DNA from: Microcystaceae cyanobacterium | Lineage (GTDB): Bacteria; Cyanobacteriota; Cyanobacteriia; Cyanobacteriales; Microcystaceae | NCBI GenBank assembly: GCA_041746575.1 | Contig: JBGTGT010000123.1 | Span: 32,001 to 96,000 of the forward strand | DNA length: 64,000 bases | Reading direction: 5' to 3' | Shown: piece after piece, positions 26,207 through 31,578 of the stretch | How the letters are laid out: each line of letters starts with the position of its first letter | How positions within the stretch are numbered: the stretch's first letter is position 1 | Program-made: the position numbers and the translations under genes | Notes under the pieces: generated by a model | Told to the model about the DNA's origin: nothing | Database searches by the model: none | The model's input: only the letters and a program-made list of their open reading frames with translations

Positions 26207-26416
26207 TCATGAGTCGGTAAAAACGTCCTTTTCATCGGACAGTGCCTCATTTGGCACATTCAGAAGAGGTAAACGTTCTCCCCGAAAGATCTCTTCGCTC
26301 ATTTCACCTATTTGACTCAATCCCTGCTCAATTCCCCGAATAACGGCTATACCAACTAAGAAAGGAGGTGTGAGTAGGCTCAACAAGATTTTGCTATCAA
26401 TTTCAAGGTTATTCAT
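26207..26416 (-). CDS. Small conserved cyanobacterial hypothetical protein
   Basis: 69 aa from ATG at 26416; hydrophobic helix and SEEIFRGERLPLL motif. Confidence 0.7.
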   Translation of the reverse strand: MNNLEIDSKILLSLLTPPFLVGIAVIRGIEQGLSQIGEMSEEIFRGERLPLLNVPNEALSDEKDVFTDS

Positions 26417-26691
26417 TGTTAAAGTCCAAAAAAGAGAAAGAGGCTGATGGGTATCATTATAAATTATTTGACCTATTAAAGTCATCAAAGCGAGTCATAG
26501 TAAAGGTTTTCACCCTTCATTTTGCCTTTTTTAGACTGCACTCAGCGATATCTTCGAGAAATTCATTTATTTTTTTTCAGGAAAATTTCCCTTAGGTGGC
26601 GTTGATTAGATTAAGAACAATGGCAGTGAATTTAAACATTGCTTCTCATGTAAAGCTCGATTTAGTTAACCCTCACCTCTTGCAAAAGCTT

Positions 26692-27792
26692 ATGATTGTT
26701 ATCATTAAACCAGCAACACCGCAAATCGAAATCCAAAGAATTAGTCATGAAGTTGCCAATTTCAATGTCAAAGTTGAAAAAACTGAAGGTAACCAAAAAA
26801 TAATTCTAGGCTTAATTGGAGAGACATCTACCCTTGATTTACGCCAAATTCAACAAATTAGTCCTTACATTGAAAAAGTGATTCGTATTGAAAAACCTTT
26901 TAAACGAGTCAGTCGCGAATTTCGCAATGGACAAGCGTCTGCTGTCACGGTTTCCACGCCCAATGGTATTGTAACCTTCGGTGAAGCCTTTCCCCTTGTT
27001 CATATTGCTGGCCCTTGTTCGGTAGAAAGTGAAGAGATGATTGTGGCGATCGCAAAACAATTAAAGGCTACTGGGGCGAAATTTCTTAGAGGAGGAGCCT
27101 ATAAACCTCGTACCTCTCCCTACGCTTTCCAGGGTCACGGAGAATCTGCTTTACACTGGCTAGCGACAGCACGCCAAGAAACAGGATTAGGCATCATTAC
27201 CGAAGTAATGGATGGAGACGAATTACCTCAAATCGCTGAAGTTGCCGATATTATCCAAATCGGCGCAAGAAATATGCAGAATTTCTCCCTCCTAAAGAAA
27301 GTAGGACGGCAAGATAAGCCCGTTCTCCTCAAACGAGGGTTATCCGCTACCATCGAAGATTGGTTAATGTCTGCCGAATACATCCTCGCCGAAGGAAATC
27401 CCAATGTAATTCTCTGTGAGCGAGGTATTCGTACCTTTGACCGCCAATACACTCGAAACACCTTAGATTTATCTGTTGTTCCCGTTTTACGAACTTTAAC
27501 CCATTTACCAATTACCCTCGACCCCAGTCATGGTACGGGTAAAGCTGAATACGTTCCTGCCATGGCCTTAGGAGCGATCGCAGTAGGTGCGGATTCCTTA
27601 ATGATTGAAGTGCATCCTAATCCGGCGCAAGCGTTATCTGATGGGCCCCAATCCTTAACGCCTCAAGCTTATGCCACATTAATGCAAAAAATGGTGACTT
27701 TAAGCGAAACTTTGGGACGGGATTCTCAGCATCCGTTAATCTCTGTTCCCCATCCTTTGCGTGAATCAGAGAAACTGCCAATTTGTGCTTGA
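26692..27792 (+). CDS. aroF: DAHP synthase, type I-beta, with N-terminal regulatory domain
   Basis: IAGPCSVES, LRGGAYKPRTSPYAFQG, QIGARNMQN, LKRG, CERG, DPSH, EVHP..ALSD; likely start ATG at 26692 (MIVIIK). Confidence 0.95.
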   Translation: MIVIIKPATPQIEIQRISHEVANFNVKVEKTEGNQKIILGLIGETSTLDLRQIQQISPYIEKVIRIEKPFKRVSREFRNGQASAVTVSTPNGIVTFGEAFPLVHIAGPCSVESEEMIVAIAKQLKATGAKFLRGGAYKPRTSPYAFQGHGESALHWLATARQETGLGIITEVMDGDELPQIAEVADIIQIGARNMQNFSLLKKVGRQDKPVLLKRGLSATIEDWLMSAEYILAEGNPNVILCERGIRTFDRQYTRNTLDLSVVPVLRTLTHLPITLDPSHGTGKAEYVPAMALGAIAVGADSLMIEVHPNPAQALSDGPQSLTPQAYATLMQKMVTLSETLGRDSQHPLISVPHPLRESEKLPICA

Positions 27793-27868
27793 GTCTCTCA
27801 TTTTATAGCTTGAACTGTGTCAACACTTATCTTTTCCGTCTTTTGTCAACCTTCCTTTGAACTAAACC

Positions 27869-29590
27869 ATGACGATTCCTTCTAAATCCCAATCCCAAAA
27901 CCTCAGCTTTGTGGGTCAATTTATCCCTCATGCTACTACCGAATCCGTTATCATGATTGGCGATAACCCTCTCACCATTGACGACGTGGTTAAAGTCTCC
28001 CGTCAAAATATCCCCGTTCTCATTAGTCACCAAGAGAAGGTGTTACAAGGGGTTCAAGCCTCCTGTGATTGGGTCGCTGAAGCAGTGGCTTCTGGTGAAC
28101 CCATTTATGGTATTACGAGTGGTTTCGGCGGCATGGCAAATGTGGTCATTAAACCCGAATTAGCGAAAGAATTGCAGAATAATCTGATGCGCTATCATAA
28201 GGTAGGAGCAGGAAAACCCTTGCCTTTGGCAGATATTCGGGCAGGAATGCTCTTGAGAGCGAATTCTCATCTTTATGGTGCGTCTGGTATTCGTTTAGAA
28301 CTGATTCAACGCATTGAAACTTTTCTCAATGCAGGCGTTACTCCCCACGTTCCCGAATTTGGCTCAATTGGCGCAAGTGGCGACTTGACCCCCTTAGCTT
28401 ACATTTGCGGCTCATTAGTAGGGTTGAATGACTATTATACGGTGGATTTTCAAGGGGAAACCTTAACAGCCCCCCAAGCACTAGAACGCCTAGGATTACC
28501 GACACTGGAATTACTGCCCAAAGAAGGTCTGGCCATGATGAATGGTACATCAGTAATGACGGGAATTGCGGCAAATTGCGCTTATGACGCTCAAATTCTC
28601 TTAGGATTATCTTTGGCATCTCACGCTCTTGCTCTACAAGGGTTAAACGGCACCAATCAATCTTTTCATCCTTTTATTCATCAGTGTAAACCCCATCCCG
28701 GTCAGGCGTGGTCTGCTCAACAAATGCTCAACTTAATTACGGATTCTCGCTTAATTCGCAATGAATTGGATGGATCTCACGATTATCGCGGGGAACAACC
28801 CATCCAAGATCGCTATTCTCTCCGTTGTCTTCCCCAATACACGGGGCCAATTGTGGAGAGTATTGCCGATATTATGCGCCAAATTGAGGTAGAAATTAAC
28901 TCAGTCACCGATAATCCGTTAATTGATGTGGCTAATCATGCCAGTTATCACGGGGGCAATTTCTTAGGGCAGTATATTGGGACAACGATGGATCAATTGC
29001 GCCACTGTTTAGGATTACTGGCAAAACATCTTGATGTGCAGATTGCCCTGTTAGCGATGCCAGAATTTAATAATGGTTTATCGGCTTCTTTGGTCGGTAA
29101 TACGGAGCGTCCTGTCAATATGGGTCTTAAAGGGCTACAGATTACAGGTAACTCGATTATGCCCTTGTTGACCTTTTACGGCAACTCTTTGGTTGATCGC
29201 TTTCCCACCCATGCTGAACAATTTAATCAGAATATCAACAGTCAAGGGTTTGGTTCTGCTAATTTAACCCGTCGTTCAATCGAAATTTTCCAGCAATACA
29301 TCGCCATTGCTTTGATGTTCGGTGTACAGTCAGTGGATTTACGAACGAAGAAAATCGCTAATCATTATGATGCGACTCAATGTCTATCTCCTGCCACTTT
29401 ACCCTTGTATTTAGCCGTTAAAGATGTAGTGGATAAAACCCCTTGTGCGCAACGTCCCTACATCTGGAACGACAACGAACAGGCATTAGACGAACATATT
29501 GCCCGAATTTCGCAAGATATCGCCACAGGAGGTCAAATTGTGCAAGCGATTCGCCAAATGATTCCCAGTCTCAAAGATAGTTTGAATTAA
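27869..29590 (+). CDS. MIO-dependent aromatic amino acid ammonia-lyase, cyanobacterial PAL clade, predicted tyrosine ammonia-lyase
   Basis: GSIGASGDL (MIO-forming A169-S170-G171), IYGITSGFG catalytic Tyr, QDRYSLRC, AEQFNQNINSQG; selectivity pair Y109-H110. Family call is firm; substrate is inferred. Confidence 0.92.
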   Translation: MTIPSKSQSQNLSFVGQFIPHATTESVIMIGDNPLTIDDVVKVSRQNIPVLISHQEKVLQGVQASCDWVAEAVASGEPIYGITSGFGGMANVVIKPELAKELQNNLMRYHKVGAGKPLPLADIRAGMLLRANSHLYGASGIRLELIQRIETFLNAGVTPHVPEFGSIGASGDLTPLAYICGSLVGLNDYYTVDFQGETLTAPQALERLGLPTLELLPKEGLAMMNGTSVMTGIAANCAYDAQILLGLSLASHALALQGLNGTNQSFHPFIHQCKPHPGQAWSAQQMLNLITDSRLIRNELDGSHDYRGEQPIQDRYSLRCLPQYTGPIVESIADIMRQIEVEINSVTDNPLIDVANHASYHGGNFLGQYIGTTMDQLRHCLGLLAKHLDVQIALLAMPEFNNGLSASLVGNTERPVNMGLKGLQITGNSIMPLLTFYGNSLVDRFPTHAEQFNQNINSQGFGSANLTRRSIEIFQQYIAIALMFGVQSVDLRTKKIANHYDATQCLSPATLPLYLAVKDVVDKTPCAQRPYIWNDNEQALDEHIARISQDIATGGQIVQAIRQMIPSLKDSLN

Positions 29591-29728
29591 GGAAGGTGTG
29601 AGGGATAAGGTACGAGGGGTTAATGCGGCATCGTTCTATATTTTCTTAATCCTCTCGTCTTCCTTGCTCAAAATTTCTGAATTCCACCATCAATCTACTG
29701 TATCCTTTGTCAACCTTAACCCCCTTAT

Positions 29729-30253
29729 ATGATGATGACACTCAACTCAACGAATCGCACCCCCAATGAATTAATCGGTAAACATCTCGTTTATACCTAC
29801 GATAATGGCTGGCAATACGAAATTTATGTCAAGAATGCCCATACCTTTTGCTACCGTATCCATAGTGGCATTGTCGGCGGTCGTTGGGTTACTGATCAAT
29901 CAGCCGATATTGTGCAAATTGCTGACTATGTTTTCAAAATCTCTTGGGATGAACCGACAGGAACGGTCGTTTGCGTCACTGTTAATCTAGAACGCCGAGA
30001 GATTCATGGAGCGATCTTTTTACCCCAATGGATTGAACAAAATCCCCAAAAAACCGTTTGCTATCAAAATGAGCATCTGGCGCAAATGTATCATTATCGA
30101 GATACAGGAGCTACTTATCCGAAAATGGTCGTTTGTGAGTTTGCCACGATTACTTTTATGGAAGATTGTGGCGCAGACCGAGATGATGTGATTAATTGTC
30201 ATCCTAGTGAATTACCGTCCCATTTTCCCTATCTAGATCGCCTTGCTTCTTGA
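29729..30253 (+). CDS. padC: Phenolic acid (p-coumarate) decarboxylase, cofactor-free PAD family
   Basis: IGKHLVYTYDNGWQYEIYVKN, YRIHSGIVGGRWV, SWDEPTGT, TVCYQNEH, TYPK..V.EFA. Y22, Y24, R52 and E75 align with B. subtilis PadC Y11, Y13, R41 and E64. Confidence 0.93.
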   Translation: MMMTLNSTNRTPNELIGKHLVYTYDNGWQYEIYVKNAHTFCYRIHSGIVGGRWVTDQSADIVQIADYVFKISWDEPTGTVVCVTVNLERREIHGAIFLPQWIEQNPQKTVCYQNEHLAQMYHYRDTGATYPKMVVCEFATITFMEDCGADRDDVINCHPSELPSHFPYLDRLAS

Positions 30254-30564: not shown

Positions 30565-31476
30565 ATGACATCCATGAAATACAAAGGTTTTCGCATTGCA
30601 ACTCTAATGGCAGTCGGTTCAACCTTAGCCTTCGCAAGCCACGCCAATGCTACTACCCTGAAAGTCACCATTGAAAGTTTAGCCCCTGCCAATGGAGCAG
30701 TAGTGACTCCTCTTTGGTTTGGTTTGCATGATGGAAGTTTTGACTCCTTCGATAGTGGTAGTGCGGCTTCAACAGGTATTATGCACCTTGCAGAAGACGG
30801 AATTGTCGGTTTAGAAGGAACCGTTCCGGGCGTTGTGGATTATTTATTAGCCAATGGACTGAATCCTGCCGTCTTGCCTCCTCCTGATAATACTATTGCC
30901 GGAATTTTTGCCAATAGCGCGGCCGGAGCAAATGGTGGGGTTCAAGGGATCATCACAGACGTTCCCATTGGCATCGGCCCTGGCCAGACTTTTTCAAGTA
31001 AGATTCGCATTAATGACGCGACGCAAAATCGCTATTTTAGCTATGGTGCGATGTTTTTCCCCAGCAATGACGCATTTATTGCTAATGGTAACCCCTTGGC
31101 GTGGGAAATCTTCGATGGAAGCGGTAAATTTAAGGGGGCTGACTTTATTATCGGTCGCAATGATATTTGGGATGCCGGCACAGAAGTCAATACGGAAACA
31201 CCGGATGATGTCCCTTTTACCTTTGATCGGGTTATTTTTGGCACCGACGAAAACGGCGTCATTACTCCTCATGCGGGTTTTCTGCCTGCCGGAAGTGGCG
31301 GTGTCTTGGACTTCAACAATGGCCAATTTGCTAACGCTGACTTTACCAATAATCCAAACTATCAACTCGCCCGTATTACCGTTACTCAAGTACCTGAACC
31401 CTCTGCCATTCTTGGTTTATTCACCATCGCAGGATTAGGCCTATTAGGACGCCAGTTAAAAAAACATAAGGAGTAA
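30565..31476 (+). CDS. PEP-CTERM surface protein with Spondin_N-like domain
   Basis: Signal peptide; TPLWFGLHDG, LAEDG, PSNDAF, WDAGTEVN; C-terminal VPEP + TM + basic tail. Confidence 0.88.
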   Translation: MTSMKYKGFRIATLMAVGSTLAFASHANATTLKVTIESLAPANGAVVTPLWFGLHDGSFDSFDSGSAASTGIMHLAEDGIVGLEGTVPGVVDYLLANGLNPAVLPPPDNTIAGIFANSAAGANGGVQGIITDVPIGIGPGQTFSSKIRINDATQNRYFSYGAMFFPSNDAFIANGNPLAWEIFDGSGKFKGADFIIGRNDIWDAGTEVNTETPDDVPFTFDRVIFGTDENGVITPHAGFLPAGSGGVLDFNNGQFANADFTNNPNYQLARITVTQVPEPSAILGLFTIAGLGLLGRQLKKHKE

Positions 31477-31496: not shown

Positions 31497-31578
31497 TGGG
31501 CAGAGCGAGACTCGAACTCGCAAGACCGAAGCCGCCGCATTTTGAGTGCGGTGCGTCTACCAATTTCGCCATCCGCCC
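31497..31578 (-). tRNA. trnL: tRNA-Leu(CAA)
   Basis: GGGCGGATGGCGAAATTGGTAGACGCACCGCACTCAAAATGCGGCGGCTTCGGTCTTGCGAGTTCGAGTCTCGCTCTGCCCA. Acceptor stem GGGCGGA/TCTGCCC, anticodon stem CCGCA/TGCGG with CAA, long variable arm, GTTCGA T-loop; CCA not encoded. Confidence 0.96.

Follow-up and report, generated by a model that had tools for sequence, protein, structure and literature searches.

The window analyzed here (64,000 nucleotides of contig JBGTGT010000123.1 from the Microcystaceae cyanobacterium assembly GCA_041746575.1) carries a cassette of three co-oriented genes coding for a 3-deoxy-D-arabino-heptulosonate 7-phosphate (DAHP) synthase, a 4-methylideneimidazole-5-one (MIO) ammonia-lyase and a phenolic acid decarboxylase (PAD), which we read, at a probability of roughly 0.6, as a de novo route from tyrosine through p-coumarate to 4-vinylphenol that would be released as a signal or allelochemical. 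The chemistry taken alone (tyrosine to p-coumarate to 4-vinylphenol) appears highly probable; the product is predicted from the enzymes, and its release and role are proposed by analogy. In this mechanism, the extra DAHP synthase would raise the flux through the shikimate pathway, the lyase would deaminate L-tyrosine to p-coumarate and return the ammonia to the cell, and the PAD would decarboxylate p-coumarate via a quinone methide to 4-vinylphenol, a small and hydrophobic molecule that could diffuse out and act as an allelochemical or signal. The cyanobacterial PAD would be plugged onto a front end of DAHP synthase and lyase whose other outlet is the assembly of furanolides, while in Bacteroidota and Polyangiaceae-like bacteria the pairing of lyase and PAD would have been assembled from other lineages of both enzymes. 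An initial annotation of this stretch had described three co-oriented genes with gaps of 76 bp (DAHP synthase to lyase) and 138 bp (lyase to PAD) and intact catalytic motifs, which the open reading frames (ORFs, all three uninterrupted), the profile matches and the motif columns confirm. The plus strand between the genes has no terminator-like site; from their spacing and orientation, the genes are probably co-transcribed.

The lyase is a single-copy gene and the sole aromatic ammonia-lyase found in the genome. Its best PDB matches are 2nyf (NpPAL) and 2nyn (AvPAL), the phenylalanine ammonia-lyases (PALs) of Nostoc and Anabaena, whose Phe/Leu pair aligns with Y109/H110 of the window protein. 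The MIO tripeptide is ASG169-171, the second specificity pair is N453/Q454, and Y80, N225, Q313, Y316, R319, N349 and F365 are invariant in the alignment. By the motif rule of PMC9321829 (Brack et al.), tyrosine ammonia-lyases (TALs) combine H/L, Y/H, F/H or S/H with N/Q, a rule that the window enzyme satisfies with Y/H plus N/Q. The earlier view of the lyase as tyrosine-type is thus borne out by its motifs, and the protein is a predicted TAL whose tyrosine specificity is read from sequence. In a Treponema enzyme with F/H, the second-position His confers tyrosine specificity: the enzyme is a TAL that the H87L substitution switched to a PAL (PMC8750797, Kukil and Lindblad). Both lyases of Herpetosiphon aurantiacus DSM 785 (65% identical) carry Y/H, and an H. 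aurantiacus enzyme, not assigned to either of these two genes, is used as HaTAL1 in the strain table of PMC10360455. The Rivularia TAL was rejected as a direct comparator because it falls among the H/L enzymes of branch 12.

We consider it very improbable that the lyase acts on phenylalanine or histidine, or is an aminomutase, and that the three genes are functionally unlinked neighbours. This explanation draws on the nearest solved structures being PALs and on the fact that motif predictions can fail; in addition, S/H plus N/Q also occurs in tyrosine aminomutases (PMC9321829), which bears on the high-GC loci described below. Against it, aminomutase models score far below their cut-off (251 vs. 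501) and the adjacency of lyase and PAD recurs. A PAL of the NpPAL/AvPAL type is disfavoured because the Phe/Leu pair is absent, and a histidine ammonia-lyase because the protein has neither the Q/E nor the T/E pair, reaches 330 bits with the hutH model (cut-off 539) and is not accompanied by a urocanase (PF01175, no match in the genome; the control matched in 6 of 14 genomes).

The PAD, likewise a single-copy gene, scores 249 bits with PA_decarbox (cut-off 24.6), and its PDB matches are all PAD/FDC/PDC enzymes. Residues Y22, Y24, R52 and E75, equivalent to the essential Tyr19, Tyr21, Arg49 and Glu72 of PMC13358373, are invariant across the 89 PAD rows compared, and decarboxylation of p-coumarate is predicted from the family and these residues; PADs require a para-hydroxyl on their substrate (PMC13358373). 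Translation probably starts at the third ATG (29735), because the relatives begin with MTL. Among the routes searched, the PAD is the sole evident consumer of p-coumarate. The PYP model TIGR02373 had no match in the genome (no control genome passed its cut-off either). Styrene monooxygenase (PF17885) and tyrosinase (PF00264) also gave no match, and their controls were equally silent. PadR-family genes were found only on contigs C8 and C80 and none on the cassette contig, in agreement with the earlier statement that no padR lies nearby. As a side observation, F40, T55 and R89 occur in 25–26 of the 26 PADs of the lyase-linked group and in a minority of the other 63 rows, a possible marker of biosynthetic PADs.

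The third enzyme, the DAHP synthase, consists of DAHP_synth_1 and a ferredoxin-like domain, scores 624 bits with PRK13396 (cut-off 486), has the motifs AGPCS, KPRT, DPSH, EVH and SDG all intact and conforms to the type I-beta class; a longer GTG start (26596) is unsupported, as the profile match begins at 26692. A separate housekeeping aroF, which the initial annotation had suggested looking for, has a counterpart in a second, housekeeping-like DAHP synthase on contig C126 (65% identical to the cassette copy). On the tree, its closest partner is the DAHP synthase of another genome from the family (79% identity, support 97), and the cassette copy is therefore taken as the extra one. Against relatives, the ratio of nonsynonymous to synonymous substitution rates (dN/dS) amounts to 0.10–0.18 for the DAHP synthase (3 pairs), to about 0.08–0.10 for the PAD (4 pairs) and to at most about 0.1 for the lyase (4 pairs, of which one is saturated); all three genes are under purifying selection.

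To place the cassette among its relatives, we used the best 80 of 415 related lyase loci from GTDB genomes (L011 and its duplicates L002 and L091 entered the count as a single locus) and the best 80 of 87 PAD loci from metagenomes, many of which are short and some near-copies; the trees are quick trees with Shimodaira-Hasegawa-like approximate likelihood-ratio (SH-aLRT) support only, the PAD tree being unrooted with 89 rows. Within the order, PAD occurs in 9 and the lyase in 52 of 401 genomes, and the two are adjacent in four of the nine (this genome included), an adjacency beyond chance at these frequencies. One cassette holds both in G000, G033, G110 and G166. In G214, the G166 order is split across two contig ends that do not overlap, so that adjacency is inferred there from collinearity with G166 only, and in G352 a PAD fragment lies at a contig end with the lyase elsewhere. 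Across the phylum sample, this genome was the only one of 401 with a PAD over the family cut-off, and none of the 27 other same-family genomes in the sample had the lyase.

PAD lies within the flank of four of the 80 lyase loci, namely L011 and L012 as well as L075 and L080, which are from Bacteroidota (PAD was found in 1 of 61 genomes of the Bacteroidota family of G703). From the metagenomes, 20 of the 80 PAD loci have a lyase: two belong to the window clade (L101, L136), and 18 are high-GC loci whose lyases are about 32% identical to the window lyase, with S/H in the 14 where the motif is covered and N/Q in the four aligned; one high-GC PAD is identical to a protein labelled Polyangiaceae by its source. 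In each of the 20, lyase and PAD share a strand (17 lyase-first, three PAD-first), the gap is as short as 6–7 bp in L112, L114 and L134, and a lyase is present in nine of the 30 loci whose flanks each reach 2.5 kb or more. PadR occurs in seven and LysR in nine of the 80 metagenomic PAD loci, with zero overlap with the 20 lyase-bearing ones. Of 86 plasmid records with PAD, two were examined: no lyase was matched within 8 kb of the Streptomyces PAD, and none is annotated within 5 kb of the Mesorhizobium one. All nine PAD-linked lyases of the window clade (among 85 lyases of that clade) carry Y/H. In the PAD tree, the window PAD falls in a six-row group (support 100) next to a 20-row high-GC group (95), the two being joined at 83, while the two Bacteroidota PADs are placed elsewhere, as are those of a second cyanobacterial lineage (L136, L095). 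Lyase-linked PADs form four groups. This suggests several independent pairings of lyase and PAD as the simplest reading of this unrooted, unbootstrapped tree.

The three-gene synteny sought in other genomes was found intact in L012, L092 and L136 besides the window, and in this respect the expectation stood. The DAHP synthase is otherwise shortened (L011) or not found (no copy in the available flanks of L101, L095, L075, L080 or the 18 high-GC loci). As judged from gene content, the conserved unit is the lyase plus PAD and not the triplet; the DAHP synthase is an accessory booster of the cassette.

Several related arrangements were observed along the way. In L136 (2371-6519), a DAHP synthase-lyase pair has, 713 bp further on, a PAD that belongs to the second cyanobacterial lineage, apparently a separate recruitment. 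A methanethiol S-methyltransferase (MddA, over cut-off) and an S-adenosylmethionine (SAM) methyltransferase lie directly 5' of the lyase-PAD pair of L101 (1-1891), in the position of the DAHP synthase, and could methylate vinylphenol or be unrelated. L095 (9802-14313) and L094/L198 have the order PAD, TerB-like gene, Y/H lyase and cytochrome P450, and the P450 might give a catechol variant; in G166 the PAD of this arrangement is interrupted by an in-frame stop, and in G214 its frame is uninterrupted. In most of L112-L125, genes for a ParA-like ATPase, a DUF4388 protein and a TPR protein follow in convergent orientation, probably marking the insertion site and not part of the pathway. Elsewhere among the PAD loci, PAD stands beside a glycoside-hydrolase-28-like gene in all six of L161-L166 (four of which have a thiamine diphosphate (ThDP) enzyme, and four a flavin oxidoreductase), and between argS and metG, with no regulator, in ten related loci (L130, L139, L146-L149, L153, L156, L157, L160).

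The initial annotation had proposed a de novo biosynthetic route, and this is supported at the level of sequence; what it had missed is that the DAHP synthase-lyase pair is the standard front end of furanolide clusters. These clusters combine CybB/C/E/F with a DAHP synthase (macA) as precursor supply, and in the cyanobacterin cluster CybB forms 4-coumarate from tyrosine (both PMC13288894, PMC12395478, PMC9324945). A DAHP synthase more than 60% identical is carried by 36 of the 80 related lyase loci, and DAHP synthase-lyase loci commonly continue with an adenosine monophosphate (AMP)-ligase, a ScyA-related ThDP enzyme and a protein resembling β-ketoacyl-acyl carrier protein synthase III (KAS III). 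Among 85 lyases of the clade, 38 are accompanied within the available flanks by a ThDP and/or KAS III-like gene, 32 by an AMP-binding gene only, nine by PAD and six by neither. The locus L202 has the full furanolide-type order, and its front end closely resembles that of the PAD cassette L012 (DAHP synthase 88%, lyase 91% identity), which indicates that the output module is swappable on one front end. L202 and L203 nest within the PAD-linked lyase clade, and the swap may have run in either direction. A PAD-only lyase clade, seen as a clade of five in the first tree, was rejected after the genomes of these two loci (G212 and G227) had been added. Orthologues of CybC/E/F were not found in the genome of the window, where the best hits reach 22–33% identity vs. 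53–82% among orthologues. Since PAD replaces the furanolide assembly genes, the product of the cassette cannot be a furanolide.

Other output modules may exist on this front end. L203 (7764-17850) has DAHP synthase, lyase and coenzyme A (CoA) ligase and then, where the ThDP/KAS III pair would stand, a GNAT-like gene and an ORF of 576 aa without assignment, and six Microcoleaceae loci (L039, L040, L045, L046, L049, L051) have the lyase, a 112-aa unknown protein, an AMP-ligase and a KAS III-like protein, with no ThDP enzyme within the available flanks; their product is possibly not a furanolide.

The likeness of L202 to L012 (88% and 91% identity) can also be read in another way, namely that a furanolide cluster lost its downstream genes and kept PAD to dispose of the orphan p-coumarate or of environmental phenolic acids. 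Decayed copies do exist, and lone PADs occur in the cyanobacteria G252, G052 and G035. An orphan lyase would, however, be cheaper to lose than to compensate for, yet the lyase evolves at the low dN/dS given above with near-saturated synonymous distances; moreover, the pairing recurs in both gene orders where no furanolide genes are nearby, and, given the nesting of L202 and L203, the swap may have gone either way. We therefore hold such a relic or damage-control function to be quite improbable.

The proposed role of 4-vinylphenol as a signal or allelochemical is based on the other outputs of the front end, since furanolide-type products are chemical mediators or algicides (PMC13288894, PMC12395478, PMC9324945), on 4-vinylphenol being membrane-active (PMC10360455), and on the patchy distribution of the cassette. 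This patchiness (PAD in one genome of the phylum sample, no lyase in the other same-family genomes) speaks at the same time against a metabolic valve, in which the cassette would burn excess fixed carbon and reductant or strip nitrogen from tyrosine, with PAD removing the inhibitory product of the lyase. TALs are indeed strongly product-inhibited (Ki 0.05–0.19 mM; PMC9321829), and the pathway would release NH3, need no cofactor and be pushed by the DAHP synthase. Relief of product inhibition was nevertheless judged an unlikely cause of the titres of engineered strains (PMC10360455), and the front end is one common to specialised-metabolite clusters, which makes a valve hard to credit.

Another possibility is that 4-vinylphenol is only an intermediate, which is hydrated, methylated, esterified as in the bagremycins, or oxidatively coupled outside the cell into a sheath or an ultraviolet-protective/antioxidant polymer, with the F-spondin-domain protein encoded next to PAD as the surface scaffold. 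Vinylphenol is a building block in the bag/fev pathways (PMC6692506), PADs can hydrate hydroxystyrenes (PMC13358373), a SAM methyltransferase lies 5' of the lyase in L101 and a P450 3' of it in L095, and the spondin gene (window, L012, L092) or an RTX-like tail (L100) adjoins PAD in four of the six loci of the PAD group. The spondin protein scores 124.9 bits with NF038123 (cut-off 40); its PEP-CTERM-like tail was recognised from the residues, the Pfam PEP-CTERM model giving no match. Its predicted structure (predicted local distance difference test score 96) matches the F-spondin domain of mindin (Z 15.6, root mean square deviation 3.1 over 181 residues), and an enzymatic function was rejected, as the fold matches F-spondin domains only. 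Its top match among 400 other genomes lies inside the G110 cassette, flanked by lyase and PAD, and ranks ahead of the paralogue in the own genome. It is probably, judging from the modelled fold, a non-enzymatic surface protein travelling with the cassette. Against vinylphenol as a mere intermediate, no downstream enzyme recurs across the cassettes, the spondin fold is that of non-enzymatic matrix domains, and G356 has near-equal spondin homologues with neither a lyase nor a PAD match. We thus regard an intermediate as unlikely and retain the released volatile as the preferred reading.

Some observations weigh against a released 4-vinylphenol made by a coherent cassette. In PMC9321829, two of ten putative TALs proved to be PALs and another two were inactive. 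According to PMC10360455, 4-vinylphenol exceeds coumarate in its toxicity to bacteria, and the cassette contains no exporter gene. L202 and L203 (genomes G212 and G227), which belong to the closest lyase clade, are followed by a CoA ligase with no PAD; three of the nine PAD genomes of the order (G252, G052, G035) have no lyase, and the PAD of G166 has an internal stop. The association of Y/H vs. F/L with PAD is not significant (9 of 60 vs. 0 of 24, Fisher p = 0.054, rows non-independent). The window DAHP synthase stands apart from the L012/L092 copies (68–69% identity, long branch), and that of L011 (7278-7934) is cut to 218 aa by an internal in-frame loss, its lyase and PAD being intact.

The features of the locus are collected in Table 1. 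The neighbours are those named in the initial annotation: ppc on one side, the PEP-CTERM-like gene (the spondin-domain gene, which starts 311 bp after PAD) and tRNA-Leu(CAA) on the other, the 3' end of the tRNA lying 20 bp beyond the cassette end. A 93-aa ORF between ppc and the cassette (26207-26488, minus strand) had no Pfam/NCBIfam match and a nucleotide match in G002.

Table 1. Features of the cassette and its boundary (positions in the window)
Feature	Position	Strand	Remarks
Type I-beta DAHP synthase	26692..27792	+	366 aa; extra copy, precursor supply, accessory; Pfam and NCBIfam
MIO ammonia-lyase, predicted TAL	27869..29590	+	573 aa; cyanobacterial NpPAL/AvPAL clade; Lyase_aromatic family
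Phenolic acid decarboxylase (PAD/PadC family), cofactor-free	29729..30253	+	174 aa; PF05870
F-spondin-domain protein	30565..31476	+	Signal-peptide-like start, PEP-CTERM-like tail; NF038123; probable accessory fourth member
12-bp word, copy 1	27842..27853	+	Just 5' of the lyase
12-bp word, copy 2	29706..29717	+	Just 5' of PAD
tRNA-Leu(CAA)	31497..31578	-	Cassette boundary, not a member

The genome (4.2 Mb, 99.78% complete) has five copies of the 12-bp word, two of them in the cassette, and the word is absent upstream of the 11 related starts compared; a promoter scan gave eight sites vs. a mean of 11.6 in shuffles. The stretch is present in four runs labelled hot springs metagenome, all from one study. 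In run X1, a single contig spans 25500-31522 with zero differences (depth 29.7 vs. 28.9 in the flank); as X1 is possibly the source of the window, this contig argues only against a chimeric join. The GC content of the cassette (0.42–0.45 vs. 0.40 in the genome) and its codon adaptation (percentiles 48–90 among 2136 ORFs) look native, no duplicated tRNA-Leu(CAA) end occurs elsewhere in the assembly and no integrase was recognised by eye in the ORF list, which speaks against a recent genomic island. Two same-genus genomes have the ppc and tRNA-side neighbourhoods without the cassette, and its being missing from the relatives that were searched makes an old acquisition probable. One of these two genomes, G001, has a PAD-like fragment of 30 residues (L004:1489-1587) in another context, possibly a remnant.

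PADs have been studied as detoxification enzymes and biocatalysts, and TAL plus PAD has repeatedly been engineered for a polymer monomer. The results suggest, as far as gene neighbourhoods can tell, that this family, familiar from the detoxification of plant acids, also serves to make a product. On a broader and more tentative view, to which we give somewhat less than even odds, lyase plus PAD could be an unrecognised two-gene module of several independent origins (two cyanobacterial PAD lineages, Bacteroidota and Polyangiaceae-like bacteria) and a regulator-free biosynthetic branch of the PADs, interchangeable with furanolide genes, with 4-vinylphenol as a bacterial volatile signal or weapon and a photosynthetic styrene monomer from CO2. 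If true, the PAD family would gain a biosynthetic role, an easily measured volatile would be predicted in cyanobacterial mats, marine Bacteroidota and soil myxobacteria, a specialised-metabolite front end would be seen to deliver either furanolides or a simple styrene through a change of output, and co-adapted enzyme pairs would become available for photosynthetic 4-vinylphenol production.

Classical PADs (PadC of Bacillus subtilis, PDC of Lactobacillus plantarum, FDC of Enterobacter) have a detoxification role. The PadR- or LysR-regulated members share the family and the catalytic residues with the window PAD, which, unlike them, is paired with a substrate-making enzyme and has no adjacent regulator. 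NpPAL and AvPAL belong to the lyase clade of the window but carry F/L and are phenylalanine-specific, whereas the H. aurantiacus lyases share Y/H; none of these has a PAD neighbour, and G706 had no PAD match. The furanolide clusters (cyb, mac, ncl) and the cassette have the same DAHP synthase-lyase front end, lyase clade and gene order (CybB itself was not compared directly), but the cassette has PAD in place of the CoA ligase, the ThDP acyloin synthase and the furanolide synthase.

As to the novelty of the route, a native lyase-PAD operon or cyanobacterial vinylphenol synthesis was not found in searches of the open-access literature; a natural route with TAL, decarboxylase and DAHP synthase has already been proposed for the bag/fev clusters of Streptomyces, where p-vinylphenol would be formed from tyrosine in two steps (TAL FevV/BagA, DAHP synthase FevY/BagF; PMC6692506). 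Bag/fev uses the UbiD/UbiX pair FevL/FevK, dependent on prenylated flavin mononucleotide, and esterifies the vinylphenol (PMC6692506), while the cassette would use a cofactor-free PAD. The window proteins score far below the bag models (BagA 275 vs. a cut-off of 1000, BagF 305 vs. 700), and UbiD/UbiX, a 3,4-AHBA (3-amino-4-hydroxybenzoic acid) synthase and a condensing ligase are absent among the cassette ORFs (no genome-wide search was made). The cassette is placed outside both the bag/fev and the furanolide families because their defining downstream genes are missing. Engineered strains combining TAL/PAL with PDC make 4-vinylphenol in vivo with relieved DAHP synthase flux (PMC10360455); their two-step chemistry is the same but artificial and taken from separate organisms, and the cassette would be its native equivalent. 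Enzymes and chemistry are familiar; the concrete result is a native pairing that recurs in three lineages and trades places with furanolide genes.

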